A DNA stretch of 64,000 nucleotides from Escherichia coli (GCF_051903065.1 NZ_CP178438.1), one strand, 5' to 3'; counted from the stretch's first letter, positions 10,503 to 24,045 are shown. The notes: generated from the sequence alone by a model not told the origin. A program made the numbers and translations.

Positions 10503-11559
10503 GGCTTTGTTGAATAAATCGAACTTTTGCTGAGTTGAAGGATCAGATCACGTATCTTCCCGACAACGCAGACCGTTCCGTGGCAAAGCAAAAGTTCAAA
10601 ATCACCAACTGGCCCACCTACAATAAAGCCCTCATCAACCGTGGCTCCATAACTTTCTGGCTGGATGATGAAGCTATTCAGGCCTGGTATGAGTCAGCAA
10701 CACCTTCTTCACGAGGCAGACCTCAGCGCTATTCTGACCTTGCCATCACGACTGTGCTGGTCATTAAACGCGTATTCAGGCTGACCCTGCGCGCTGCGCA
10801 GGGCTTTATTGATTCCATTTTTTCTCTGATGAACGTTCCGCTACGCTGCCCGGATTACAGCTGTGTCAGCAGGCGGGCAAAGTCGGTTAATGTCAGTTTC
10901 AAAACGCCCACCCGGGGTGAAATCGCACACCTGGTAATTGATTCCACCGGGCTGAAGGTCTTCGGTGAAGGCGAGTGGAAAGTCAAAAAGCATGGCCAGG
11001 AACGCCGCCGTATCTGGCGTAAGCTGCATCTCGCCGTTGACAGTAAAACACATGAAATCATCTGCGCTGACCTGTCGCTGAACAACGTTACGGACTCAGA
11101 GGCCTTCCCCGGGTTAATCCGGCAAACCCACCGGAAAATCAGGTCAGCCGCCGCCGATGGCGCTTACGATACCCGGCTATGTCACGATGAACTGCGGCGT
11201 AAGAAAATCAGCGCGCTTATCCCTCCCCGAAAAGGTGCGGGTTACTGGCCCGGTGAATATGCAGACCGTAACCGTGCAGTGGCTAATCAGCGAATGACCG
11301 GGAGTAATGCGCGGTGGAAATGGACAACAGATTACAACCGTCGCTCGATAGCGGAAACGGCGATGTACCGGGTAAAACAGCTGTTCGGGGGTTCACTGAC
11401 ACTGCGTGACTACGATGGTCAGGTTGCAGAGGCTATGGCCCTGGTACGAGCGCTGAACAAAATGACGAAAGCAGGTATGCCTGAAAGCGTGCGTATTGCC
11501 TGAAAACACAACCCGCTACGGGGGAGACTTACCCGAAATCTGATTTATTCAACAAAGCC
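10503..11559 (+). mobile_element. IS903-type insertion sequence (IS5 family), about 1057 bp
   Basis: Terminal inverted repeats GGCTTTGTTGAATAAATC at 10503-10520 and its reverse complement at 11542-11559; internal transposase ORF; flanked by a 9-bp direct repeat. Confidence 0.9.
10535..11503 (+). CDS. IS903-group transposase
   Basis: 322-aa ORF (TTG start in the track; true start may be slightly internal); IS5/IS903-type transposase sequence. Confidence 0.85.
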   Translation: MKDQITYLPDNADRSVAKQKFKITNWPTYNKALINRGSITFWLDDEAIQAWYESATPSSRGRPQRYSDLAITTVLVIKRVFRLTLRAAQGFIDSIFSLMNVPLRCPDYSCVSRRAKSVNVSFKTPTRGEIAHLVIDSTGLKVFGEGEWKVKKHGQERRRIWRKLHLAVDSKTHEIICADLSLNNVTDSEAFPGLIRQTHRKIRSAAADGAYDTRLCHDELRRKKISALIPPRKGAGYWPGEYADRNRAVANQRMTGSNARWKWTTDYNRRSIAETAMYRVKQLFGGSLTLRDYDGQVAEAMALVRALNKMTKAGMPESVRIA

Positions 11560-11684: not shown

Positions 11685-12203
11685 ATTCCAACCCCATGTT
11701 ACATTTCAATTACAGGTCAGACCCAGGGGAACATCACTGCCGGTGCTTTCACCGCAGATTCTGTCGGCAATATCTACGTGCAGGGACACGAAGATGAAAT
11801 GCTGGTGCAGGAGTTTCTGCATAACGTTACTGTTCCAACCGATCCACAGTCTGGTCAACCTTCCGGGCAGCGCGCGCACAAACCGTTCATTTTCACCGTG
11901 GCGCTGAACAAAGCCGTTCCGCTGCTGTACAACGCGCTGGCCTCCGGTGAAATGCTGCCGAAAGTGGAGCTGCACTGGTGGCGTACTTCAGTTGAAGGCA
12001 AGCAGGAGCACTACTTCACCACACGTCTTACTGACGCGACGATTGTGGACATGAACCTGCACATGCCGCACTGCCAGGACCCTGCACAGCGTGAGTTTAC
12101 GCAATTGCTCGCAGTATCACTGGCATACCGTAAGGTTGAGTGGGAGCACATCAAATCCGGTACTTCTGGTGCCGATGACTGGCGTGCACCGCTGGAAGCA
12201 TAA
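11685..12203 (+). CDS. hcp: T6SS tube protein Hcp, apparent non-ATG (ATT) start
   Basis: Frame-0 translation IPTPCYISITGQTQGNITAGAFTADSVGNIYVQGHEDEML... follows a TAA stop at 11682-11684; AGGAG at 11673-11677 is 7 nt upstream of ATT 11685. The track called only the GTG at 11778. Confidence 0.75.
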   Translation: MPTPCYISITGQTQGNITAGAFTADSVGNIYVQGHEDEMLVQEFLHNVTVPTDPQSGQPSGQRAHKPFIFTVALNKAVPLLYNALASGEMLPKVELHWWRTSVEGKQEHYFTTRLTDATIVDMNLHMPHCQDPAQREFTQLLAVSLAYRKVEWEHIKSGTSGADDWRAPLEA

Positions 12204-12423: not shown

Positions 12424-14823
12424 ATGTCCTTAAAAGGTCTGCGCTTTACGCTGGAGATTGACGGCCAGGAGCCGGACACCTTTGCAGTGGTGAATTTCAG
12501 GTTAATCCAGAACCAGTCTTATCCGTTTGTGATGAGTGTGGATGTTGCCAGCGACTCTTTTATGCAGACGGCGGAGATGCTGCTGGAGAAGAAGGCGACG
12601 CTGGCCATCTGGCAGGGCGCGGTGGCGCAGCGTTATGTCACCGGCGTGGTGGCGGGTTTTGGTATGCAGGAGAACAATGGCTGGCAGATGCGTTATCACC
12701 TGCGTATTGAGCCGCCGTTATGGCGGTGCGGGCTGCGGCAGAACTTCCGTATCTTCCAGCAGCAGGATATCCGGACGATATCGGCCACGTTACTGAACGA
12801 GAACGGCGTCACGGAGTGGACGCCGCTGTTTTATGAGGACCATCCGGCGCGGGAGTTCTGTGTGCAGTACGGGGAGTCGGACCTGGCGTTTCTGGCGCGG
12901 CTGTGGGCGGAGGAGGGAATTTTCTTCTTTGAGCGGTTTGCGGCGGACAGTCCGGAGCAGAAGCTGACGCTGTGCGACGATGTGGCGGGGCTGTCACAGG
13001 CGGGAGAGCTTCCGTTTAACCCGGACACATCGGCAGGAGCGGAGACAGAGTGTGTCAGTATGTTCCGTTATGAGGCGTATGTCCGCCCGTCGTCGGTGCA
13101 GAGCCAGGATTACACGTTTAAGGTGCCGGACTGGCCGGGGATGTATGAGCAGCAGGGTGAGAACCTGAACGGACAGCTGGCGCAGTATGAGATATTTGAT
13201 TATCCGGGAAGGTTCAAGGATGAACAGCACGGTAAGGATTTCACGCTGTACCAGATGGAGAGCCTGCGCAGTGATGCGGAAAAGGCCACAGGGCAGAGTA
13301 ATTCACCGAAGCTGTGGCCGGGAACGCGGTTTACGCTGACGGGGCATCCGCAGAAGATGCTGAACCGTGAATGGCAGGTGGTACAGAGCATTCTGTCAGG
13401 GGACCAGCCGCAGGCGCTGCACGGCAGCCAGGGGAGAGGAACCACGCTGGGAAATCAGTTAGAGGTGATACCGGCGGACCGGACGTGGCGTCCACGGCTG
13501 CAAAGCAAACCGAAGGTGGACGGGCCGCAGAGTGCCATTGTGACCGGGCCGAAGGGTGAGGAGATATTCTGCGACGAACATGGCCGGGTACGGGTGAAGT
13601 TCCACTGGGACCGTTATCACGGGATGACGGAGGCGAGTTCATGCTGGGTGCGGGTATCACAGGCGTGGGCGGGGCCGGGGTTTGGTAACCTGGCGATACC
13701 GCGGGTGGGTCAGGAGGTGATTGTTGACTTCCTGAACGGAGACCCGGACCAGCCGCTGGTCATGGGCCGGACGTACCATGAGGACAACCGTTCGCCGGGG
13801 AGCCTGCCGGGGACGAAGACGCAGATGACGATACGGTCGAAGACCTATAAAGGAAGCGGATTTAACGAGTTGCGCTTTGAGGACGCCACCAGTAATGAGC
13901 AGGTGTATATCCATGCGCAGAAGAACATGGATACGGAGGTGCTCAACGACCGGACAACGGATGTGAAACATGACCATACGGAAACCATCGGTAACGACCA
14001 GAAGATAACGGTGGTGAAGGGTCAGACGGTTCAGGTCGGTACAAAAAAAGAGGGGGGCCACGACCAGAGTATCACGGTGGCGAATGACCGGTGCATCACG
14101 GTACGTAATGACCAGACGCTGCAGGTGACGAATGACCGGACGGTGAGCGTGAGTCACGATGACGGTCTGTACGTAAAAAATGACCGAAAGGTGACGGTGA
14201 AAGGGAAGCAGGAGCATAAGACGACGGGTAACCACATCAGCCTGGTGGAGGGGAAGCACAGCCTGGAGGTGAAGGGGGACCTGGCGGAGAAGGTGAGTGG
14301 CGCGCTGGGGATAAAAGTGGACGGGGATATCGTGCTGGAGAGCAGCAGCCGGATAAGCCTGAAGGTGGGTGGCTCGTTTATCGTCATTCAGCCGGGCGGA
14401 GTGGATATTGCCGGGCCGAAGATAAACCTGAACGGTGGGGGCAGTGCGGGGACACCGGTGGGGACGATGCAGCCGGCGGTGCTGGAGGCTCCGGAGGATG
14501 AGAGCAGTGATGATGGCAGTGATGACTCCGGAGAGGATAGTGGCAATCCCGCAGGGAGTGACGGAGGAGGTGATGGCGGTGACGATGAAGATGATCCTGA
14601 AAAATATACCCTCCAGTTCCATTTTACGGACGATGACGGGATACCGTATTCAGAGACGCAGTATATTGCCTTTTTTGAGGATGGCACACAGACGCGTGGT
14701 GAAACAGACAGAGAGGGATATACAGAAATATTTTATACAGATACAGCACAGGAAATTAAAGTCCAATTGTTATTTTCGGATGCTTTTTATATTGAGCCGG
14801 AGGGGCATTATGGCAGGGAATAA
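12424..14823 (+). CDS. vgrG: T6SS spike protein VgrG with acidic linker and C-terminal extension domain
   Basis: 799 aa; gp27/gp5-like body, repetitive beta-helix (VKNDRKVTV...), acidic Asp/Glu/Ser-rich linker, then a ~65-aa C-terminal domain. Confidence 0.9.
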   Translation: MSLKGLRFTLEIDGQEPDTFAVVNFRLIQNQSYPFVMSVDVASDSFMQTAEMLLEKKATLAIWQGAVAQRYVTGVVAGFGMQENNGWQMRYHLRIEPPLWRCGLRQNFRIFQQQDIRTISATLLNENGVTEWTPLFYEDHPAREFCVQYGESDLAFLARLWAEEGIFFFERFAADSPEQKLTLCDDVAGLSQAGELPFNPDTSAGAETECVSMFRYEAYVRPSSVQSQDYTFKVPDWPGMYEQQGENLNGQLAQYEIFDYPGRFKDEQHGKDFTLYQMESLRSDAEKATGQSNSPKLWPGTRFTLTGHPQKMLNREWQVVQSILSGDQPQALHGSQGRGTTLGNQLEVIPADRTWRPRLQSKPKVDGPQSAIVTGPKGEEIFCDEHGRVRVKFHWDRYHGMTEASSCWVRVSQAWAGPGFGNLAIPRVGQEVIVDFLNGDPDQPLVMGRTYHEDNRSPGSLPGTKTQMTIRSKTYKGSGFNELRFEDATSNEQVYIHAQKNMDTEVLNDRTTDVKHDHTETIGNDQKITVVKGQTVQVGTKKEGGHDQSITVANDRCITVRNDQTLQVTNDRTVSVSHDDGLYVKNDRKVTVKGKQEHKTTGNHISLVEGKHSLEVKGDLAEKVSGALGIKVDGDIVLESSSRISLKVGGSFIVIQPGGVDIAGPKINLNGGGSAGTPVGTMQPAVLEAPEDESSDDGSDDSGEDSGNPAGSDGGGDGGDDEDDPEKYTLQFHFTDDDGIPYSETQYIAFFEDGTQTRGETDREGYTEIFYTDTAQEIKVQLLFSDAFYIEPEGHYGRE

Positions 14824-15613
14824 TAATACTAGTGGGACTTCACAACCCGAGTCGCAAGTATGTGTAGTACCGCAAAAAATTACAAATAAATTTAAAATAA
14901 TGATGAGTAAGGCTTGTAAAGCACAGAAAATGGTTTTATTGAAAAGAGCAGATGATATTATGTCATGGGAGGGGGAACAACAACGAGATTTTATTAAAGT
15001 TTTTGGCCTTAAAGGCGAGGACATTATAAAAATCAGAAAAGTTGGGGAAGATACTGGGAAACGAATGCAAGCGAGACTATTCATAATGGATGGCATCAGA
15101 CGAATAATGACGATTGCAAATGGTTTGACGATCGAAAGCTATAAAGATTATACGAACTGCAATGAATTTGCTGCTTTTATTAGTCCACATCTTGATCCTC
15201 CTTACATTGTAAATATCGGAGCGCATTTTGAATACAGACATGGTATAAAACAGTCGGTTACAGGTAGAGACTCTCATGTAAGTACACTTTGCCATGAAAT
15301 GTCCCATATATTTTGGTATTGGGGTGACAATCAAAAAGGTGGTATGTGGACTCAGGATTATACGGGTATTAATAAGTTCGCAACAAGTAATAAGGATGAA
15401 GTTAGCTATGAGAAACATGTTTCAGTGGCTAATGATCTGGTTACATTGCGTAAAGATCAGTTATTTGAGAATGCATATAATGTTGAAAGATATTTTTATA
15501 TAAAATTAAATGATGAAGATATTGAAGCTCAAGATGAGAATATGTTAGCAAAAAAAGTAGAGGATAAAATAAAAGAGATAGAAAAATGTTTTGATGAGTT
15601 GACGGGGAAATAA
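14810..15613 (+). CDS. Putative T6SS cargo effector, HExxH zinc-metallopeptidase-like
   Basis: ATG at 14810 overlaps the vgrG stop; AT-rich; HEMSH motif encoded at 15293-15307. The track's longer 14435 start lies inside vgrG and is rejected. Confidence 0.55.
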   Translation: MAGNNNTSGTSQPESQVCVVPQKITNKFKIMMSKACKAQKMVLLKRADDIMSWEGEQQRDFIKVFGLKGEDIIKIRKVGEDTGKRMQARLFIMDGIRRIMTIANGLTIESYKDYTNCNEFAAFISPHLDPPYIVNIGAHFEYRHGIKQSVTGRDSHVSTLCHEMSHIFWYWGDNQKGGMWTQDYTGINKFATSNKDEVSYEKHVSVANDLVTLRKDQLFENAYNVERYFYIKLNDEDIEAQDENMLAKKVEDKIKEIEKCFDELTGK

Positions 15614-15614
15614 G

Positions 15615-16364
15615 ATGAAGAGGTTGGCTTTCTATAATCTAAATTATGTTGTACTGATGGTTTTTTTTCTTTGTTTTTTGCCATTATCTATTGCAATTGC
15701 AATAGATAATGAGAATCTTTTTGTAAAAAAATACAGATTCGGTTTTGAACGAAGAAGTGACAATGGGAAACCAATTATTTATCTTAGCCATAATTTAGCG
15801 CCAGAGGAAAATATAAGTAATGAATTAACAAATGATGTTGTTGTTAAATTGGTGGTTAAGCCACATGCTGAAAATATTTTAGCTACTATAACTTTTTATA
15901 ACAGTAGTACTAAATCGTATTTTCTCCCCAGAATATATTATCCAAAGAACTTCCAAAAAGGAAATGGAGATGTATTTGATGCTTTGTGTGATGACGAATT
16001 CTTGATTACATCAGGAAATATTAGCTTAGACTATCTAGGAGGCTTTTGTCCCTTTGAGCTTGATTTGAATTTGAGCCGATGGGTGGAAATTACGGCAGGT
16101 AAAAAAATATCTTTTGATGTAAAATTGAATGATATGCATTCATTTCTCCCCAGTTTAAATAATTATCATATAAAAACATTAAACTACAAACTTGTTAGGA
16201 GAAAATGGTTTGTATTAAAATCAATTAATGAAACATTCCTCTCTATTTTGATGAAAAGATACTCATGTAATGAATATGATTTTAGAGCTATATCATTTAG
16301 TGGAGAGGGATGTGATAATTATGAATTTGATAAAAATACGTTTTTTTTGTTAATCAAATATTAG
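15615..16364 (+). CDS. Signal-peptide protein, candidate cognate immunity protein
   Basis: Start 1 nt after the effector stop; N-terminal hydrophobic signal (VVLMVFFLCFLPLSIAIA); AT-rich. Confidence 0.5.
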   Translation: MKRLAFYNLNYVVLMVFFLCFLPLSIAIAIDNENLFVKKYRFGFERRSDNGKPIIYLSHNLAPEENISNELTNDVVVKLVVKPHAENILATITFYNSSTKSYFLPRIYYPKNFQKGNGDVFDALCDDEFLITSGNISLDYLGGFCPFELDLNLSRWVEITAGKKISFDVKLNDMHSFLPSLNNYHIKTLNYKLVRRKWFVLKSINETFLSILMKRYSCNEYDFRAISFSGEGCDNYEFDKNTFFLLIKY

Positions 16365-16600
16365 ATAAAGATGATGAGCAACATTCTGTTCATATTAGGT
16401 CTAATGAATTTTCCATCAATATCGATGGAAGCTTGGTAAAGCAACCTTATTGATTAAAATGTATCGCAGGTTTTATTTTCTGTAATGCTGGTGCATGTGC
16501 GTAAATATTTCTTAAGAGCCGGAAACACCTCTTCCGCCTTTATCGACGATAAACCTACCGCCAGAACCGGTGATGCCATTGACTGCGGTGGCGTGGTTAA

Positions 16601-16941
16601 AGGTGGAGGGCGATGTGGTGCTGGAGAGCAGCAGCCGGATAAGCCTGAAGGTGGGCGGTTCGTTTGTGGTCATCCATTCAGGGGGCGTGGACATCGTCGG
16701 GCCGAAAATCAATCTCAATAGCGGCGGTAGTCCGGGAACGCCGGTGCCGACGCTGCAACCGGCGGTTCTGAAAGCGCTGGCAGATGATAAAAGTTTAGCG
16801 GCTGAGCAAAATGATAGTAATGCATCGTCCGATCAGAATGATAACAACGATGAGGGTGAGGAAGCGCCAGAAAAATCGGTGTGTAAGGAGTGCCTGAAAA
16901 GGGCGCAGGAAGCCGCCGCCGCTTTTGCGCCTCGTGGATAA
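16601..16941 (+). pseudogene. Orphan vgrG 3' remnant with a different C-terminal tail
   Basis: Nucleotide and protein similarity to vgrG 14310-14470 (VLESSSRISLKVGGSF.V.IQ/HSGGVDI.GPKINLN.GGS.GTPV), then a divergent acidic tail; no vgrG N-terminal body upstream. Confidence 0.7.
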
Positions 16942-16947
16942 GGGAGA

Positions 16948-17718
16948 ATGACGATGATAACAGTATCGCCACGCGCTACCGATCAAGACAAATATATTAT
17001 CTGGCTGAAGCAGGCTGAATCATTCTGTTCTGCCGCTGGTTTGGATTACATAGATGTGCTTGTTGACCAGGCTGGAACCGACCAACCTTTGCAAAATGAG
17101 ATACTTCATCTGTGGCCAGCCATTCACTGGTATGCCCTGTTTGAAGGAACGCCTGAAGCTGAGACGATGGAGTATTCCCCTGTAGTGTTACGCCTGTACT
17201 TTGCGCTCAGTAGCCATCGCAAATTTCTGGCACAACTGATGGCGTCATTTGCTGATACGCCGCGTCTTACTTTGTTGATATCCCCTCTTACATTCGACCT
17301 GCTGGGGCGGCATCTTCAGGTATTGTCACAGGTTCAGTGGGAAGAACAGACCGGATTGCTGCGTTACTATGATAATCGGGTGTTCCCTTTACTGTTCACA
17401 CATGTTTTGACTAACGAGCAGCAGGCGACATTTACTGATATTGCGTTGTTCTGGAGCTGGTTAGACCGTGATGGTGAGATTAACTGGAAATCAGGAAGTT
17501 TTTCACCAGAACGCAGGCTTACTGACAACCCGGAGATGAATCGGGTGGATGATGTACAGGTGGGATTGATGGGCTGTATCTGCGACGCTGAAGTCCTGAT
17601 GAAGGAGAAAGCAGTCAGTGAACTCAGTCAGGAAAGCTATTTTGCCCACTGTCTTGATATTGCTTTCAGAGCCAATGACGCGAAATATTTCGGAGCTTTG
17701 CGGGACTTCGAAGGATAA
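16948..17718 (+). CDS. Putative T6SS effector adaptor (DUF4123-like), low confidence on family
   Basis: 256-aa ORF between the vgrG remnant and the immunity/effector pair; position and size fit adaptor/chaperone genes. Start may be the third codon (16954). Confidence 0.45.
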   Translation: MTMITVSPRATDQDKYIIWLKQAESFCSAAGLDYIDVLVDQAGTDQPLQNEILHLWPAIHWYALFEGTPEAETMEYSPVVLRLYFALSSHRKFLAQLMASFADTPRLTLLISPLTFDLLGRHLQVLSQVQWEEQTGLLRYYDNRVFPLLFTHVLTNEQQATFTDIALFWSWLDRDGEINWKSGSFSPERRLTDNPEMNRVDDVQVGLMGCICDAEVLMKEKAVSELSQESYFAHCLDIAFRANDAKYFGALRDFEG

Positions 17719-18061
17719 TATTGTGGTGATGTACGGGGAGATTTATCTGTTTAAAAGTCCGTAGCTGTTAATATCAAGAGATAATCGTGAAATAAACGGA
17801 AAATCAAGCTCGACATGTAATGGTAGTATCCATCATGTTGCATTTGTGTTCGATCGTAATGTCAGTTCACTTGGCTGCAATATATTTTGCGTAATATCAT
17901 CAATGCTCTGTCGATATTCCAATGTGTGACAATCGAAAGATATGCATTTTATTTGCTTCTTTGTCAAAACTTTATTGTCGTAGAAACAATACCCATCAAT
18001 TAAAATCTCTCAAAGTAAAAGAACCAGCAACATGTCCAGCAAAATAAGGAAAAGTATCAGT

Positions 18062-18586
18062 ATGAGAGCGATTTTCAAATGTTATTCTCTAATGATTTTA
18101 TTTGCAGTATCAGGCTGTTCAATGGCAAAAAATAGCGGTGATTACACTGCTGTGGATATTAATGGGATAAATCATACGGATAAGGATATAAATTATATAC
18201 ACATCAATGGTTACGGCGGACCAAATATTGGTCCATTCGGAGACGGTGGAGGATATTGTTGCGTTATGCTGCCAGATAAGTGGCATTCTGGATTAAAAGC
18301 CCAGGTTGAATGGGAAATTACCCCAAATACAGTACCTCCGCCACCACTCTATAAGGATTGGGATAAATATCAGGCCTGGGAGAAAAAACTAAAAGAAAGT
18401 TACATTCAACATACCGCAATTGTTGATATCCCGGAATACGATGCTGAGCTTTGTGGCCTGACCGTTCATTTTCTAACGTGTAATCAGATTAAAGTGACAA
18501 CCGTCTGCCAGAAGTATGGCACACCGAATTATCCCATCAAAGAACCCCGCGAGATGAAGGAACCAGCAACATGTCCAGCGAAATAA
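18062..18586 (+). CDS. Lipoprotein, Tli-like candidate immunity for the adjacent lipase
   Basis: MRAIFKCYSLMILFAVSGC lipoprotein signal; AAGGA ~12 nt upstream. The track start at 18032 lies inside a duplicated 3'-end repeat and is rejected. Confidence 0.6.
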   Translation: MRAIFKCYSLMILFAVSGCSMAKNSGDYTAVDINGINHTDKDINYIHINGYGGPNIGPFGDGGGYCCVMLPDKWHSGLKAQVEWEITPNTVPPPPLYKDWDKYQAWEKKLKESYIQHTAIVDIPEYDAELCGLTVHFLTCNQIKVTTVCQKYGTPNYPIKEPREMKEPATCPAK

Positions 18587-18602
18587 GTGGTCTGGCTTTT
18601 CC

Positions 18603-20663
18603 GTGTTATGCCCCCCAGCGTTTCCTGAAAATGGGCGATTAATATTATCTGAAGCGCAGGTAAACGCGAACTACCTAAAACAAATCAATAAAACAGAAGA
18701 GCACAAAACCAACTGTAGTAAACAGGCTGGATTTAGAATTGGCTTTACGTGTAATCAAAGTCTGCATATTAGTCTGTTTTTTGATGGTACAAATAATAAT
18801 GAATATAATGACACTCCTGGACACCCAATCAATATTGCCAAACTGTTTCATACGACCTATCAGAACGCAGAAGAACAGGGATATTTTAACTACTATATAC
18901 CGGGTGTAGGCACACCATTTCCCAAGATAGGTGAAATGGATTACAGCAACAGCGGGCTGGAGTTCGCTACTGGTGGTGAAGATCGAATTAATTGGGCATT
19001 ATTACGCCTCGTGGATGCCCTGAGCTATTCCATTGACCCTTCCCATAAGCGACTGGATGATAATGTGGCAAAAGAGCACATTCCTCTTATGCGCGCTCCC
19101 TGGCCTATGACTGGTGAAGTGAATCGTCGCAATGTGATTAACCCCTACCTGGAAAAATTACAGGGACTGTTAGAGCAAGCCAGTCCGCGCCTGCTAAACG
19201 TAAAGCTGTTTATCTACGGATTTTCCCGTGGCGCAGCGGAAGCACGAACTTTTGTTAACTGGTTGACTCAGTTAGCTTGCCCGCAGGAGCAACAGGTGAT
19301 GCTGGCCGGGTTAGCTGTCAGTATTGAGTTTTTGGGGCTGCTGGATACCGTAGCTTCTGTGGGGGCGGCGCATGTTTTACCGGGCGCTGCCGGTCATATG
19401 GGATGGGCCGATAGTACTCAGCAACTCCCTGATGAGAGGCAGTTTCCCGGCCTGATTAAATGCTGCCGCCACTTCGTTGCCGCGCATGAGCAGCGGCTGT
19501 GCTTTCCGCTGGATTCAATCCGTCGTCCAGACGGAAATTATCCTTTAAATGCAGAGGAAATTATCTATCCGGGGATGCACTCTGATGTCGGTGGTGGCTA
19601 TCCCGTTCGCGATCAGGGGAAGTCCTGTGGTGACTCAGGCGAAATTCTTTCTCAGATAGCACTGCATGATATGTATCTTGCTGCATTTGATTCAGGAGCA
19701 CCACTTGCTGTTTATTCTAAATTTGTTACTCCATTAATAAAAGGTGTGTCGCCTCTGCGAATTATGAGTCCTTCTAGCGTAAAGGAATTTACGATTGCTA
19801 ATTCATTAACAAAACGCTTCAACATCTGGCGACAAACGCTGCTGAACACCACCTTGCAGGGTACAGAAGAAATGATTGATACGAGGGAAGGTTATCACTC
19901 CTATCAACTTGCCCAGGTTCTTGAAAGCGCAATTAGCGATCAGATCGGCTGGATCACCGCCTGGCGTATCGGTCGCTATGCGAATAACAGCCTTCTTGTG
20001 CAACCTTTTTATATTAAGGCGCCACAGCTGGATAAAGATGGACTTGATAAAGAGGCTAAAGCGCGTAAAGAACAAATGGAAAATATTGAAAAAGAGCGGG
20101 CGAACAAGCAGAAAGGGAATGGCACACTTGATGAAAGTAATCAGGGCATTCCTATCCTTGACCCAACCAATGCTCAGTATCAGTTGCGAGAGGCAGCCCG
20201 AGAATTTCAGAGCGATTATAAAGGATGGACGCGCGATATTAACGGCAGCGTCATGGAGAAAGCCATTCAGATTCTTGTGGATGTCATTCCTAAATATCCG
20301 GTGTATCTGATTAATGGCGATGATGAAGCAAAAGAATATCAGCAAATTAAGGCTATGGGAGACGGACTCTATCCACAATTTTTTATTGATTCACTGGGAA
20401 CGGGAACGCGTACTCAGCCCTGCGCTGAATTACTGGCTCTCTATGATGACCAGGTTCACGACTCCCGCGCCTGGTTTATGCAAAGTTCGCTGGGTGGACG
20501 CGAACCCTGGGGCGGTTATTTTCGCTACCGCATGATTTACTTCGGTGATGAGGCTAATAAAGAGCTGAAGCTAATCTCTGCAGATGGCAAAGTTGTTGGT
20601 GATCAGCCCACATCCAACCGGGTCATTTATTGGATGGAATCGAAAACGGTGAGCCGAGGTTAA
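18603..20663 (+). CDS. tle1: T6SS phospholipase effector, Tle1-like (DUF2235, GxSxG)
   Basis: 686 aa; LFFDGTNNN N-terminal core motif and GFSRGA (GxSxG) at 19217-19234. Start codon uncertain: GTG 18603, no in-frame ATG upstream. Confidence 0.7.
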   Translation: MLCPPAFPENGRLILSEAQVNANYLKQINKTEEHKTNCSKQAGFRIGFTCNQSLHISLFFDGTNNNEYNDTPGHPINIAKLFHTTYQNAEEQGYFNYYIPGVGTPFPKIGEMDYSNSGLEFATGGEDRINWALLRLVDALSYSIDPSHKRLDDNVAKEHIPLMRAPWPMTGEVNRRNVINPYLEKLQGLLEQASPRLLNVKLFIYGFSRGAAEARTFVNWLTQLACPQEQQVMLAGLAVSIEFLGLLDTVASVGAAHVLPGAAGHMGWADSTQQLPDERQFPGLIKCCRHFVAAHEQRLCFPLDSIRRPDGNYPLNAEEIIYPGMHSDVGGGYPVRDQGKSCGDSGEILSQIALHDMYLAAFDSGAPLAVYSKFVTPLIKGVSPLRIMSPSSVKEFTIANSLTKRFNIWRQTLLNTTLQGTEEMIDTREGYHSYQLAQVLESAISDQIGWITAWRIGRYANNSLLVQPFYIKAPQLDKDGLDKEAKARKEQMENIEKERANKQKGNGTLDESNQGIPILDPTNAQYQLREAAREFQSDYKGWTRDINGSVMEKAIQILVDVIPKYPVYLINGDDEAKEYQQIKAMGDGLYPQFFIDSLGTGTRTQPCAELLALYDDQVHDSRAWFMQSSLGGREPWGGYFRYRMIYFGDEANKELKLISADGKVVGDQPTSNRVIYWMESKTVSRG

Positions 20664-20734
20664 GTTCATAAGATTGAGGGGGGGGTGACCGGGAAAATGT
20701 AGACATGTAGTGCCTAATCACCCCAGTTCAAACC

Positions 20735-20762
20735 CATCCGCATCCCGCCATGCCGGAAACTT
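20735..20762. repeat. 28-bp copy of the yafV 3' end (direct repeat with 23283-23310)
   Basis: CATCCGCATCCCGCCATGCCGGAAACTT is identical at both sites. Confidence 0.8.
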
Positions 20763-20920
20763 CACACTGTACTCCCAGGGAAAAATCACGTAATGCTGCT
20801 TTTTTTGTACTAAATAATTCGCATTTTATGTTCAATAATTGAGGTGTTCCTTATTACCTAAAGCTGTTTTTCATTGCTTATACATGATCAAATACTCATT
20901 GCATAATTAAGGGGGGCAAA

Positions 20921-21684
20921 ATGGAACTTAAAAAATTGATGGAACATATTTCTATTATCCCCGATTACAGGCAAGCCTGGAAAGTGGAACATAAATTGCC
21001 AGATATTCTATCTGTTAACTATTTGCGCCGTTATTTCTGGTGCATAATGCTGGGAAGATATAGAGGATTTGGGGAAACACATCCCGATTTTTTGAAGTGA
21101 TATGGTGATTTTGAAAATGGTATTCCTGTTCACGATATCATTGCCAGAGTTGTATCCTGTATCAGTCCTGAAAAATTTCATGAGTGCTTTATTAACTGGA
21201 TGCGTGACTGTCATTCTTCAGATGATAAAGACGTCATTACAATTGATGGAAAAACGCTCCGGCACTCTTATGATAAAAGTCGTCACAAGGGAGCAATTTA
21301 TGTCATTAAAATCCGTCTTCATATTGTTTGCATGTCTCTGATGAATTTATTGATTTTACGTTTGAATGGAAAGGGCTGAAGAAATTATGCATGGCAGCCT
21401 CATTTCGCTCAATAATAGCAGAACAAAAGAAAAATCCCGAAATGACGGTCAGATATTATAGCATTTCTGCTGATTTAACCGCAGAGAAGTTCGCCACAGC
21501 GAACCGAAATCACTGGCAAGTGGAGAATAAATTGCACTGGCATCTGGACGTGGTAATGAATAAAGACGACTTCAAAATAAGAAGAGGAAATGCAGCAGAA
21601 TTATTTTCAGGGATACCGAAGATCGCTATTAATATTTTAACGAAAGATAAGATAATCAAGGCAGGGGCAAGATGTAAGATGTGA
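20921..21684 (+). pseudogene. ISAs1-family (H-repeat-associated) transposase pseudogene with internal deletion and stops
   Basis: [26 protein letters not shown]... N-terminus, in-frame stop, and C-terminal part (...[11 protein letters not shown]...[11 protein letters not shown]...) in three broken frames. Confidence 0.75.
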
Positions 21685-21912: not shown

Positions 21913-22416
21913 ATGGTAGATATTGTCGAGGCCGATAAAACGGATATTTATTTCATTCAGGAGAGTGTTTATGGTAAAATCGGGCTGCCAGCTTTTGGTA
22001 ATACAATAGGACCATCTGCACAGCAGGTTGTTAAAAAGGTATTCGCTGTCGTTAAAGAACGAGATAAGACACATGCAAAACAGAGATTATTGTTGGAATA
22101 TAATGGTAACAAACTCTGGATGAATGCTATTGATGGCAGTGAAGCTATCCTACCAATAGAATTTTCTAAGCGATACGAACTTTCATTATTCAATACTACT
22201 AATTTTGGAGAAGATCCTTTTCCTGATGTTAATTTATATAATAATATGAAATCAAGTTTTTTTGTAAGGTTTGGTGGAACATCCCATCCCGAGGCTTGGG
22301 CTATTTATAATGCAAGTACGAAAGAGGTTAAATATATAGAAACTGCAAGAGAAATTGATAAAATATTCAGTGATTTTAACTTGAGTGGTACATTGCCAAT
22401 TCACATTGGTCAATGA
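21913..22416 (+). CDS. Hypothetical protein (AT-rich, unknown function)
   Basis: 167-aa ORF with GGAGGG RBS; no family recognised. Confidence 0.5.
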   Translation: MVDIVEADKTDIYFIQESVYGKIGLPAFGNTIGPSAQQVVKKVFAVVKERDKTHAKQRLLLEYNGNKLWMNAIDGSEAILPIEFSKRYELSLFNTTNFGEDPFPDVNLYNNMKSSFFVRFGGTSHPEAWAIYNASTKEVKYIETAREIDKIFSDFNLSGTLPIHIGQ

Positions 22417-22482: not shown

Positions 22483-22995
22483 ATGAATAAACGGATTGAA
22501 TGTGTTATGTTAAAAATGAGTTTATACGTAATAATATTGTTATTTTCCTTTCAGATTAGTGCAGCCATTACTAGCAAGGAAAGTGAGGTTGTTTCACCAT
22601 TATTAATGGATGTTAATTCTTCACTAACAATGCAAAATATTTCTGAATTATCCACATCATCGGAACCATCGCAACAGGGGGTATTTCCTGTAATATGTAC
22701 TCGACTTCATCCTGGCTCCGTAATGAAACGCCAGTTATTAACCGGCTGGGGGCCTGTTTTTATAATTGGTGATGATCCTTTTTCTCTGCGCTGGATGAGT
22801 GAACATCTGGAGATCCTTAAATCGCTAAATGCCCTTGGTTTGGTTGTTAATGTTGAATCAGTAGAACGAATGGAGGTATTACAGCAGCGGGCTGATGGGT
22901 TATTGTTATTGCCAGTTATCTGCGATAATTTCGTGCAAACTCTGCAATTAAATGCTTATCCGGTATTAATCACAGAGATGGAAATATCACAATGA
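22483..22995 (+). CDS. Hypothetical secreted protein (signal peptide)
   Basis: 170-aa ORF; N-terminal hydrophobic signal MSLYVIILLFSFQISAAIT; AT-rich. Confidence 0.5.
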   Translation: MNKRIECVMLKMSLYVIILLFSFQISAAITSKESEVVSPLLMDVNSSLTMQNISELSTSSEPSQQGVFPVICTRLHPGSVMKRQLLTGWGPVFIIGDDPFSLRWMSEHLEILKSLNALGLVVNVESVERMEVLQQRADGLLLLPVICDNFVQTLQLNAYPVLITEMEISQ

Positions 22996-23017
22996 TTAAT
23001 AACATAATTACTGCAAA

Positions 23018-23222
23018 TAATATCGTAATTTTGAAAATGGTAATCCTGTTCACGGCACCATAATTAGAGTTATGTCTTGTATCCGTTCAGTATAATTTCA
23101 CGAATGCTTTATTAACTGGATGCGTGACTGCCATTCATCAAATGACAAAGACGTCATCGCGATTGATGGAAAAGCACTTCCACACTCCTATGATAAAAGT
23201 GGTCGCAGGAGAGCGGGCTTTC
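23018..23222 (+). pseudogene. Second ISAs1-family transposase fragment (about 200 bp, direct repeat of 21095-21300)
   Basis: YGDFENG...[24 protein letters not shown]... segment is duplicated at both locations. Confidence 0.7.
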
Positions 23223-23268
23223 GTAGTCTTCCCCGACTCTCCCCAGCCCTAAACACAACACCCACTCA

Positions 23269-24045
23269 CTACAACCTAAACTCATCCGCATCCCGCCATG
23301 CCGGAAACTTATCGCGATATTCCCTTAACACCGCCATCGACAGCTCCGCATCAATGCGCGTTGCCTGATGCGCGTCGGCAGTAGCGATAATCTCGCCCTG
23401 TGGATTAATCACCCGGCTGTCACCGCGATAATGGCAGCCGTTGCCATCGCTGCCGACGCGATTGCATCCCGCCACATACGCCTGATTCTCAATCGCGCGG
23501 GCCGTCAGCAATGCCTGCCAGTGCAGAGAGCGCGGAGCAGGCCAGTTGGCAACGTAGATGGCGAGGTCATAATCGTTGAGATTGCGCGACCACACCGGAA
23601 AACGTAAGTCGTAGCACACCAACGGCAAAATACGCCAGCCGCGCCATTCCACAATCACTCGCGCATTGCCCGCTTTATAATGCAGATGCTCATCTGCCAT
23701 GCGGAACAGATGACGCTTATCATAAAAATGTACCGTGCCGCCCGGCTCAACCAGCAAAAAGCGGTTAACCGAACCAGACTCCGTTTGTAATGCAACACTG
23801 CCTGCAATCAGCGCATTGCACTGCTGCGCTTTGGCTGTCATCCAGTTCACTACGTCATCTTGTGCTAGCGACGAAGCAGCCGCTTCCATGGCAAAGCCGC
23901 TGGTAAACATCTCCGGTAGAACGATCACATCGCGCCCGGTAATACCTTCCAGTTGACGATCAAAATGACGCAGGTTGGCAGGGCCATCCATCCACACCAG
24001 TGGTTGCTGCAAAAGCGTAATCTTCAAACCAGGCACGGTGTACAA
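23269..24045 (-). CDS. yafV: Carbon-nitrogen hydrolase family protein YafV
   Basis: 258-aa ORF, nitrilase-superfamily sequence; true start may be 3 codons internal. Confidence 0.9.

Follow-up and report, generated by a model that had tools for sequence, protein, structure and literature searches.

The H2-type VI secretion system (T6SS) locus of Pseudomonas aeruginosa, vgrG4a-tla1-tli1b-tli1a-tle1 (PA3294-PA3290; PMC13133936), is a described counterpart of the element analyzed here, an orphan vgrG 3' end with adaptor, immunity, and lipase genes behind it in a 64,000-nt stretch of Escherichia coli DNA (NZ_CP178438.1; the whole stretch is hereafter called the window). In the P. aeruginosa system both Tla1 and Tle1 bind to the ~20 C-terminal residues of VgrG4a, and binding is lost when this stretch carries point mutations (PMC13133936). 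The two loci share the gene families, their order, and a tandem set of immunity genes upstream of the lipase, one copy of which is often a pseudogene, and by analogy the C-terminal tail of the E. coli VgrG would be expected to bind adaptor and lipase. They differ in that the E. coli lipase (697 aa) lacks the C-terminal ~170 residues of the P. aeruginosa enzyme (884 aa), and in that the cognate vgrG of the window is a 115-codon fragment and its tle1 is frameshifted.

In enteroaggregative E. coli (EAEC), Tle1 binds the C-terminal domain of VgrG1 directly, with no DUF4123 adaptor, and its immunity protein belongs to a different family. The Sci-1 Tle1/Tli1 pair with VgrG1 (PDB 6SJL/6SKI) resembles our locus in being built on a VgrG-carried phospholipase of the Tle1 family whose Ser, Asp, and His align, although the relationship is distant (E = 5.8e-6 for the 697-aa relative) and limited to the catalytic core.

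Two further precedents bear on how the locus may have arisen. C-terminal displacement has been described for rhs and proposed for vgrG (PMC2935791; PMC8125069), and the literature on it covers vgrG, rhs, and cdiA (Jackson 2009, PMC2935791; Steele and Moran 2021, PMC8125069; Kirchberger 2017, via PMC8125069). As in that process, the window suggests a homologous crossover within a conserved block plus an illegitimate join, with the former 3' end and the immunity gene linked to it left orphaned downstream; here, however, the orphan goes beyond a toxin tip and an immunity gene and keeps a separate adaptor gene and a separate, near-complete effector gene, and the junction is a fragment of a PAAR gene. 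M35 metallopeptidases are known T6SS cargo as well (P. aeruginosa VgrG2b and E. coli PAR M35; PMC10673891). The window has, like those systems, an M35-like peptidase directly 3' of vgrG followed by a putative immunity gene, but its Pfam match is weak (E = 0.0022) and there is no separate DUF2345 gene.

The families are already named in RefSeq, the evolutionary route is published, and the mechanism proposed here is borrowed from the P. aeruginosa homologues. Our literature search turned up nothing published on the E. coli Tle1/Tla1/Tli1a module, intact or orphaned, and no experimental work on these E. coli proteins; nor did we find described the PAAR-fragment junction, the recurrent frameshift in a C run of tle1, or the co-occurrence of that frameshift with loss of the vgrG tail. 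We consider it very probable that the region is the original cargo module of the locus (vgrG tail, tla1, tli1a, and tle1), displaced by an incoming cassette and now frameshifted in its lipase gene. It would be a clean example, dated by comparison, of arsenal turnover in an E. coli T6SS, in which a new tail and toxin came in and the old set was stranded.

An orphan vgrG 3' end precedes a set of Tle1-family cargo genes

The remnant repeats part of the resident vgrG, far beyond chance. With blastn, positions 16595-16787 match 14309-14501 at 78% identity over 193 nt (E = 2.8e-40), a repeat search pairs 16580-16794 with 14294-14508 at 76%, and a perfect 38-nt match (14332-14369 and 16618-16655) stands in the same reading frame in both copies. 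An earlier note on this DNA, which had called for this alignment, took the last ~110 codons of vgrG to be duplicated at 16601-16941. The remnant is real, but the duplicated part is only ~64 codons long and aligns with codons ~629-693 of the resident gene, which has 799, rather than with its last ones, with full divergence thereafter. Past the shared block the resident gene continues into an acidic linker and a C-terminal domain of ~70 residues, in which Pfam finds no transthyretin-like or other named domain. The last ~50 codons of the remnant form the different tail that the same note had seen, ending in ...EEAPEKSVCKECLKRAQEAAAAFAPRG; in other E. coli, complete vgrG genes end in the same tail at 99-100% identity. 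A tandem duplication of the strain's own vgrG was considered as the origin of the remnant and rejected, the two copies being 76-78% identical as against 99-100% between the remnant tail and the genes of other strains.

RefSeq annotates the remnant in near-identical genomes as "VgrG, incomplete, missing N-terminus" (locus L001, 9198-9542, equivalent to 16597-16941 of the window), and it matches no NCBIfam family. It has no convincing start codon with a ribosome-binding site and no spike-forming domains. With a query specific for its tail, 67 genomes gave a match, each a single one, in near and distant modes alike. In the strains with the M35 cassette, that single copy is the remnant; a complete second vgrG, for which the relatives were searched, is not present in them with this tail.

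The 256-aa product of 16948-17718 matches Pfam PF13503 (DUF4123) over residues 38-159 (E = 1.2e-14) and exceeds the curated cutoff of the NCBIfam equivalog NF053803, "toxin Tle1 chaperone Tla1" (220.2 bits against 200), which bears out the adaptor identity that had been suspected from its position. The GGGAG ribosome-binding site lies at a more suitable distance from ATG 16954 than from the start at 16948. The gene, tla1, is 97-100% identical among all relatives. The lipoprotein at 18062-18586, earlier called Tli-like, scores 211 bits against a cutoff of 110 for NCBIfam NF053804 (Tli1a_fam), and its translation reads as a lipoprotein signal with the lipobox AVSGC and cleavage between MRAIFKCYSLMILFAVSGC and S.

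The proposed 686-aa DUF2235/GxSxG lipase proved to carry Tle1 catalytic and C-terminal domains (PF09994, E = 1.4e-13 and 5e-7; PF22137, E = 7e-57), although it matches no NCBIfam family. Against P. aeruginosa Tle1 (PDB 4O5P), its full-length relative of 697 aa gives an alignment over residues 11-677 (E = 1.7e-118). The predicted catalytic triad is intact (GFS219RGA, LD259TVA, and H337SDVGGGY in 697-aa numbering), and Ser219, Asp259, and His337 align with positions 197, 245, and 310 of EAEC Tle1 chain 6SJL_D. These positions are reported to be the catalytic Ser, Asp, and His of that enzyme (Flaugnatti et al. 2016). The family does not look catalytically dead in all relatives, an outcome that would have spoken against the earlier description, as relatives have intact genes with all three predicted residues. 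That the immunity gene lies upstream of the lipase was also correctly noted, but it is no oddity, being the standard Tle1 order in P. aeruginosa and in all intact E. coli relatives.

Comparison with intact loci points to displacement by an M35 cassette

The tli1a-tle1 junction is found in 69 complete E. coli genomes, 12 of which carry the M35 cassette; among the remaining 57, the loci opened were L002, L007, L008, and L012. Strains AF5 (L002) and A21 (L008) have, at this position of the chromosome, hcp, a vgrG for 743 aa, tla1, three copies of tli1a, and a tle1 for 697 aa, with tla1 directly 3' of the intact vgrG; in the window, tla1 begins 6-12 nt after the remnant. To judge from these sequences, hcp-vgrG (743 aa)-tla1-tli1a (one to three copies)-tle1 (697 aa) appears to be the usual order in most of the 69 genomes.

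Aligned with the AF5 locus, the window runs to 14501 (L002 6142) and resumes at 16618 (L002 5973), so that it has ~2.1 kb of extra DNA and contains 170 nt of vgrG (L002 5973-6142) twice. In a sliding identity plot, identity to the intact-type vgrG is at least 92% up to ~14400 and gone by ~14500. The cassette DNA has a G+C content of 29-42% and no counterpart in the AF5 locus. Of 5426 complete E. coli genomes just 12 have it, in every case with the remnant behind it. Because the cassette is rare, low in G+C, and absent from intact loci, we take the Tle1 set to be the displaced resident cargo and the M35 set to be the newcomer. The region had been described as a second cargo module; most of the 69 genomes with this tle1 lack the cassette, and the region is better regarded as an original module displaced than as one added. 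The accompanying proposal, that vgrG 3' ends are swapped together with their effectors, fits well, given that the remnant carries the tail of full-length vgrG genes found elsewhere and the cassette lies between the two copies.

At its right-hand end the cassette terminates in a PAAR-gene fragment covering residues ~59-91 of the 94-position NCBIfam T6SS_PAAR_dom (E = 6.6e-9), with nucleotide identities of 92% to E. coli PAAR genes and 87.5% to the one located before vgrG in strain PapRG-04-4 (L005). The frames of fragment and remnant overlap at ~16596-16616 in a short purine-rich stretch (AAAGGTGGAGGG). The PAAR fragment is fused out of frame at this junction, and the arrangement fits a single homologous crossover within the conserved block of vgrG and a single illegitimate join. 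The locus presents the hallmarks of displacement together: a 3' fragment that has a block in common with the upstream gene and a tail known from complete genes elsewhere, foreign cassette DNA separating the two, and an illegitimate junction.

On this evidence, and on that from the P. aeruginosa homologues, the history of the locus may be pictured as follows. In the usual state the last residues of VgrG would recruit the DUF4123 adaptor Tla1 and the phospholipase Tle1, which would ride the spike into the periplasm of a rival cell, while the outer-membrane lipoprotein Tli1a would protect the producer. Foreign DNA with a different vgrG 3' end, an M35 peptidase gene, and a putative immunity gene would then have recombined into vgrG, through a first crossover in the ~200-nt conserved block before the variable tail and, at the other end, an illegitimate join at the PAAR-gene fragment. 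The spike would now carry the new tail, the old one being left as a 115-codon fragment with no start signal. Because the cognate tail survives only in this remnant, Tla1 and Tle1 would be without a carrier in this strain. In addition, the lipase gene has lost one C from a run of seven, and ribosomes starting at the native ATG would terminate after 23 codons.

Table 1. Features of the displaced module and of the cassette in the window
Feature	Position	Strand	Remarks
Orphan vgrG 3' remnant	16597-16941	+	115 codons; conserved block, then tail cognate to Tla1/Tle1
Conserved vgrG block, upstream repeat copy	14294-14508	+	Inside resident vgrG (12424-14823, 799 aa)
tla1, DUF4123 adaptor/chaperone	16948-17718	+	Pfam DUF4123 and NCBIfam Tla1
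31-nt junction unit	18018-18048	+	Carries ribosome-binding site, ATG, and stop; precedes the single tli1a of the window
tli1a, DUF3304 outer-membrane lipoprotein immunity gene	18032-18586	+	RefSeq start 18062; single copy, type A variant
Severed native tle1 5' end	18571-18642	+	ATG overlaps tli1a stop; 23 codons, then TAA
tle1 body	18603-20663	+	686 codons from GTG; Tle1/DUF2235 phospholipase family
C6 homopolymer, -1 frameshift site	18611-18616	+	C7 in all alleles with an intact 697-aa open reading frame
Incoming cassette	14502-16595	+	New vgrG tail (to 14823), M35 peptidase, putative immunity gene, AT-rich spacer
M35-family peptidase	14810-15613	+	Weak match to Pfam Aspzincin_M35; RefSeq "M35 family metalloendopeptidase"
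Putative immunity gene after M35	15615-16364	+	Membrane-anchored; 249 aa here, 279 aa in relatives
PAAR-gene fragment	16518-16616	+	Right-hand junction of cassette; frame differs from that of remnant

Loss of one C separates tle1 from its native start

In the relatives the 697-aa tle1 open reading frame starts at the ATG of a 31-nt unit, where it overlaps the tli1a stop, suggesting that its translation is coupled to that of tli1a. In the window this ATG (18571) opens a frame that runs for only 23 codons to a TAA at 18640-18642, and a complete tle1 reading frame from the native start of the family is absent. The ATG is out of the lipase frame because one base has been lost from a C7 run eleven codons downstream; a single added C restores MSSEISGLAFPCYAPPAFPENGRLIL... 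and the 697-aa frame. GTG 18603 is the first start-like codon of what remains, with no ribosome-binding site, and the first in-frame ATG lies ~110 codons in. The earlier note had reported that the lipase has no in-frame ATG and only GTG 18603, leaving its expression signal unclear. The open reading frame does start at that GTG, but the cause is now apparent in the shortening of C7 to C6, which severs the native ATG, and GTG 18603 reads as an annotation rescue. By the same token, the RefSeq "Tle1-like" proteins of 686 or 681 aa, with GTG or later starts, are rescued frameshift alleles of the 697-aa protein, the true start of which lies within the end of tli1a. Judging from the sequence, the lipase is in all likelihood absent or produced in traces only, and the adaptor and immunity genes are intact.

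Among the loci compared, C7 with the 697-aa frame occurs in L002, L004, L005, L007-L009, L013, and L014, and C6 with the 23-codon frame in the window, L001, L003, L006, and L010-L012. Strains A30 (L009) and GPT24-02 (L013) have the tle1 allele of the window, but with C7. The exact 686-aa product is found on 45 contigs across NCBI, ENA, and Logan, which argues for a circulating allele and not a single assembly error; its C7 sibling is found on 29.

An apparent link between lesions and a detached vgrG tail

Run length was taken from the match spans in the records over the 69 genomes, and eight of them have C6: ECNB21-M121, 23CRST027, and 23CRST031, a trio of the window type; 2018-05-2CC; 32F4, 33F4, and 33E; and MFDS1022581. 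They span four tle1 allele backgrounds, and in all eight the cognate vgrG tail is detached, by the M35 cassette in seven and by an IS21 insertion in vgrG in one. Among the genomes compared, the change seen was only from C7 to C6, with no C8 and no clear reversion.

The M35-type genomes differ in what else, if anything, is damaged. In A30 (L009 7287-9380) tle1 is in frame with C7 and carries D259N at the predicted catalytic Asp, together with a patch of substitutions at residues 154-205. The tla1 gene is broken in PapRG-04-4, no tli1a is left in 2018-05-2CC, and IS600 and IS1 are inserted inside the module in FDAARGOS_943. MFDS1019527, in which the tail falls under a partial gp5-domain annotation and vgrG is probably disrupted, still has C7. 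The module is complete in the M35-type strains GPT24-02 and FDAARGOS_944.

This pattern suggests that selection on a lipase that can no longer be exported is relaxed, or even negative, for lineages that are few and not independent and with vgrG checked in a handful of C7 genomes. The apparent link between tail loss and lipase inactivation, few as the lineages are, would amount to a natural test of the dependence of an effector on one specific spike tail.

Weighing the displacement reading against alternatives

Several points weigh against a displaced and silenced module. No convincing terminator was found, although the promoter and terminator scan was at chance level (19 found against 15.9 expected, and 4 against 5.8) and so carries no information on how the module is transcribed, and transcription could read through from vgrG-M35. 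Some lipase could be made by -1 slippage on the C run or by initiation at GTG 18603. The left crossover is not sharply placed by the sliding identity plot because vgrG is a mosaic, and a peptide-pattern scan of 100,044 representative genomes yielded no relative of the M35 protein, so that the donor of the cassette was not found. The intact modules of GPT24-02 and FDAARGOS_944 indicate that displacement does not force decay and that the module may retain a use. Finally, the ATT start of hcp, the IS903B insertion, and the truncated M35-linked gene, all described below, mean that decay may affect the whole locus.

Some of these points would favor a working second cargo, with Tle1 made from GTG 18603 or by slippage and carried out on the resident spike, on a PAAR protein, or on a different VgrG. 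All 686 codons are open with the predicted Ser-Asp-His triad intact, neither tla1 nor tli1a is damaged, the module is not set apart from the upstream operon by a strong terminator, and some M35-type strains keep the whole module. We nonetheless think this unlikely, since the GTG has no ribosome-binding site and the coupled native start is in the wrong frame, a fragment is all that exists of the cognate VgrG tail, on which loading depends in P. aeruginosa, and hcp itself starts with ATT here.

A contingency-type switch at the C7 run, turning the lipase reversibly off and on with immunity held constant, seems less credible again, and we rate it very improbable. The run does lie near the 5' end of the coding region, at a distance of eleven codons from the start; four allele backgrounds have acquired C6, and both states occur within one allele family (45 frameshifted contigs to 29 with the C7 sibling). 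However, C7 is short for a phase-variable tract in mismatch-repair-proficient E. coli, the changes seen went from C7 to C6 alone, every C6 locus has its vgrG tail already detached, as expected of one-way decay, and other homopolymers in the island vary too.

That the missing C is a sequencing or assembly error in a gene that is really intact deserves almost no credence, and the 45-contig record of the frameshift-dependent 686-aa protein, from several archives, rules it out as the main cause. Homopolymers are error-prone in long-read assemblies, and sister genomes do differ from the window by single-base G-run indels, but C6 is common to the window and three RefSeq genomes that are mutually distinct in single-nucleotide polymorphisms (SNPs) and come from China and Ecuador.

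Displacement of a module whose lipase gene is frameshifted remains our preferred reading. A bolder extension of it, which we regard as improbable, is that C7 is a preferred off-switch, thrown repeatedly and possibly selectively after the VgrG carrier has been lost, and that the stranded module is a reserve that can be re-armed through the 38-nt repeat. If so, RecA recombination across 14332-14369 and 16618-16655 would excise the M35 cassette and restore a complete vgrG that ends in the Tla1-binding tail; re-arming of this kind has been shown for orphan Rhs toxins in Salmonella.

The tli1a array

At every tli1a/tli1a and tli1a/tle1 boundary the 31-nt unit supplies AAGGA and an ATG, followed at a distance of 13 nt by the stop codon of the preceding gene. 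The copy number of tli1a varies from zero to three, in tandem (L002 7387-9006; L012 5413-7018). Two types, A and B, are 58-61% identical, and in most strains the copy next to tle1 is of type B. In the window, in A30, and in their kin, all that is left is a type A variant, which is 58% identical to the tle1-proximal type B. The 31-nt unit and the ~540-nt spacing would fit unequal crossing-over within the array. The third copy in L012 is an apparent chimera of types A and B. In the window, the spacer at 17980-18031 ends in a degenerate tli1a 3' end (KEPATCPAK-stop), suggesting that the immunity array once reached further upstream.

The cassette genes and the surrounding locus

Neither the M35 protein nor the product of the gene after it matches an NCBIfam family; the latter is probably the immunity protein of the peptidase. 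Two T homopolymers in this gene (15653-15661 and 16341-16348) differ by one base among strains. From ATG 15615 the open reading frame is 249 aa long in the window and 279 aa in A30, PapRG-04-4, and 33F4, a T-run frameshift having shortened it in the window lineage, and it ends after 29-31 aa in four other strains, for which RefSeq gives a later start. In GPT24-02 (L013 551-835) and PapRG-04-4 (L005 4140-4424) a complete PAAR gene, not hcp, precedes the M35-type vgrG, and in PapRG-04-4 the entire composite island lies amid IS3, ISAs1, and IS100 elements, remote from tssB/C.

The window comes from an E. coli T6SS locus adjoining yafV-ivy-fadE, with tssF/E/C/B, hcp, and vgrG on one side of the module and yafV, ivy, and fadE on the other. 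Positions 16400-20800 are 100% identical to the chromosomes of E. coli ECNB21-M121 and 23CRST031. SNPs distinguish the window from ECNB21-M121, and G-run indels distinguish it from 23CRST027 and 23CRST031; no complete RefSeq genome is exactly equal to it. The vgrG gene is intact in the window but a pseudogene in the sister genomes 23CRST031 (L001) and 23CRST027 (L003), through single-base losses in G4 runs that correspond to positions 13399 and 12871 of the window.

The start codon of hcp (11685-11687) is ATT in the window, 23CRST027, and 23CRST031, where RefSeq still annotates an intact gene, and ATG in ECNB21-M121, A30, AF5, and the other strains checked; with ATT, Hcp production should drop sharply. 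Upstream of hcp, an IS903B element of the IS5 family (10535-11503) lies between the divergently oriented tssB and hcp. AF5 lacks this element, the positions corresponding to 10502 and 11560 being contiguous there, and it may disturb the promoters of both operons.

Downstream of the module are two pairs of direct repeats with 77-81% identity, 20713-20776 with 23261-23324 and 21095-21294 with 23015-23214. Both are remnants of ISAs1-family transposase genes and flank small open reading frames at 21913-22416 and 22483-22995, the second of which RefSeq names "integrating conjugative element protein".

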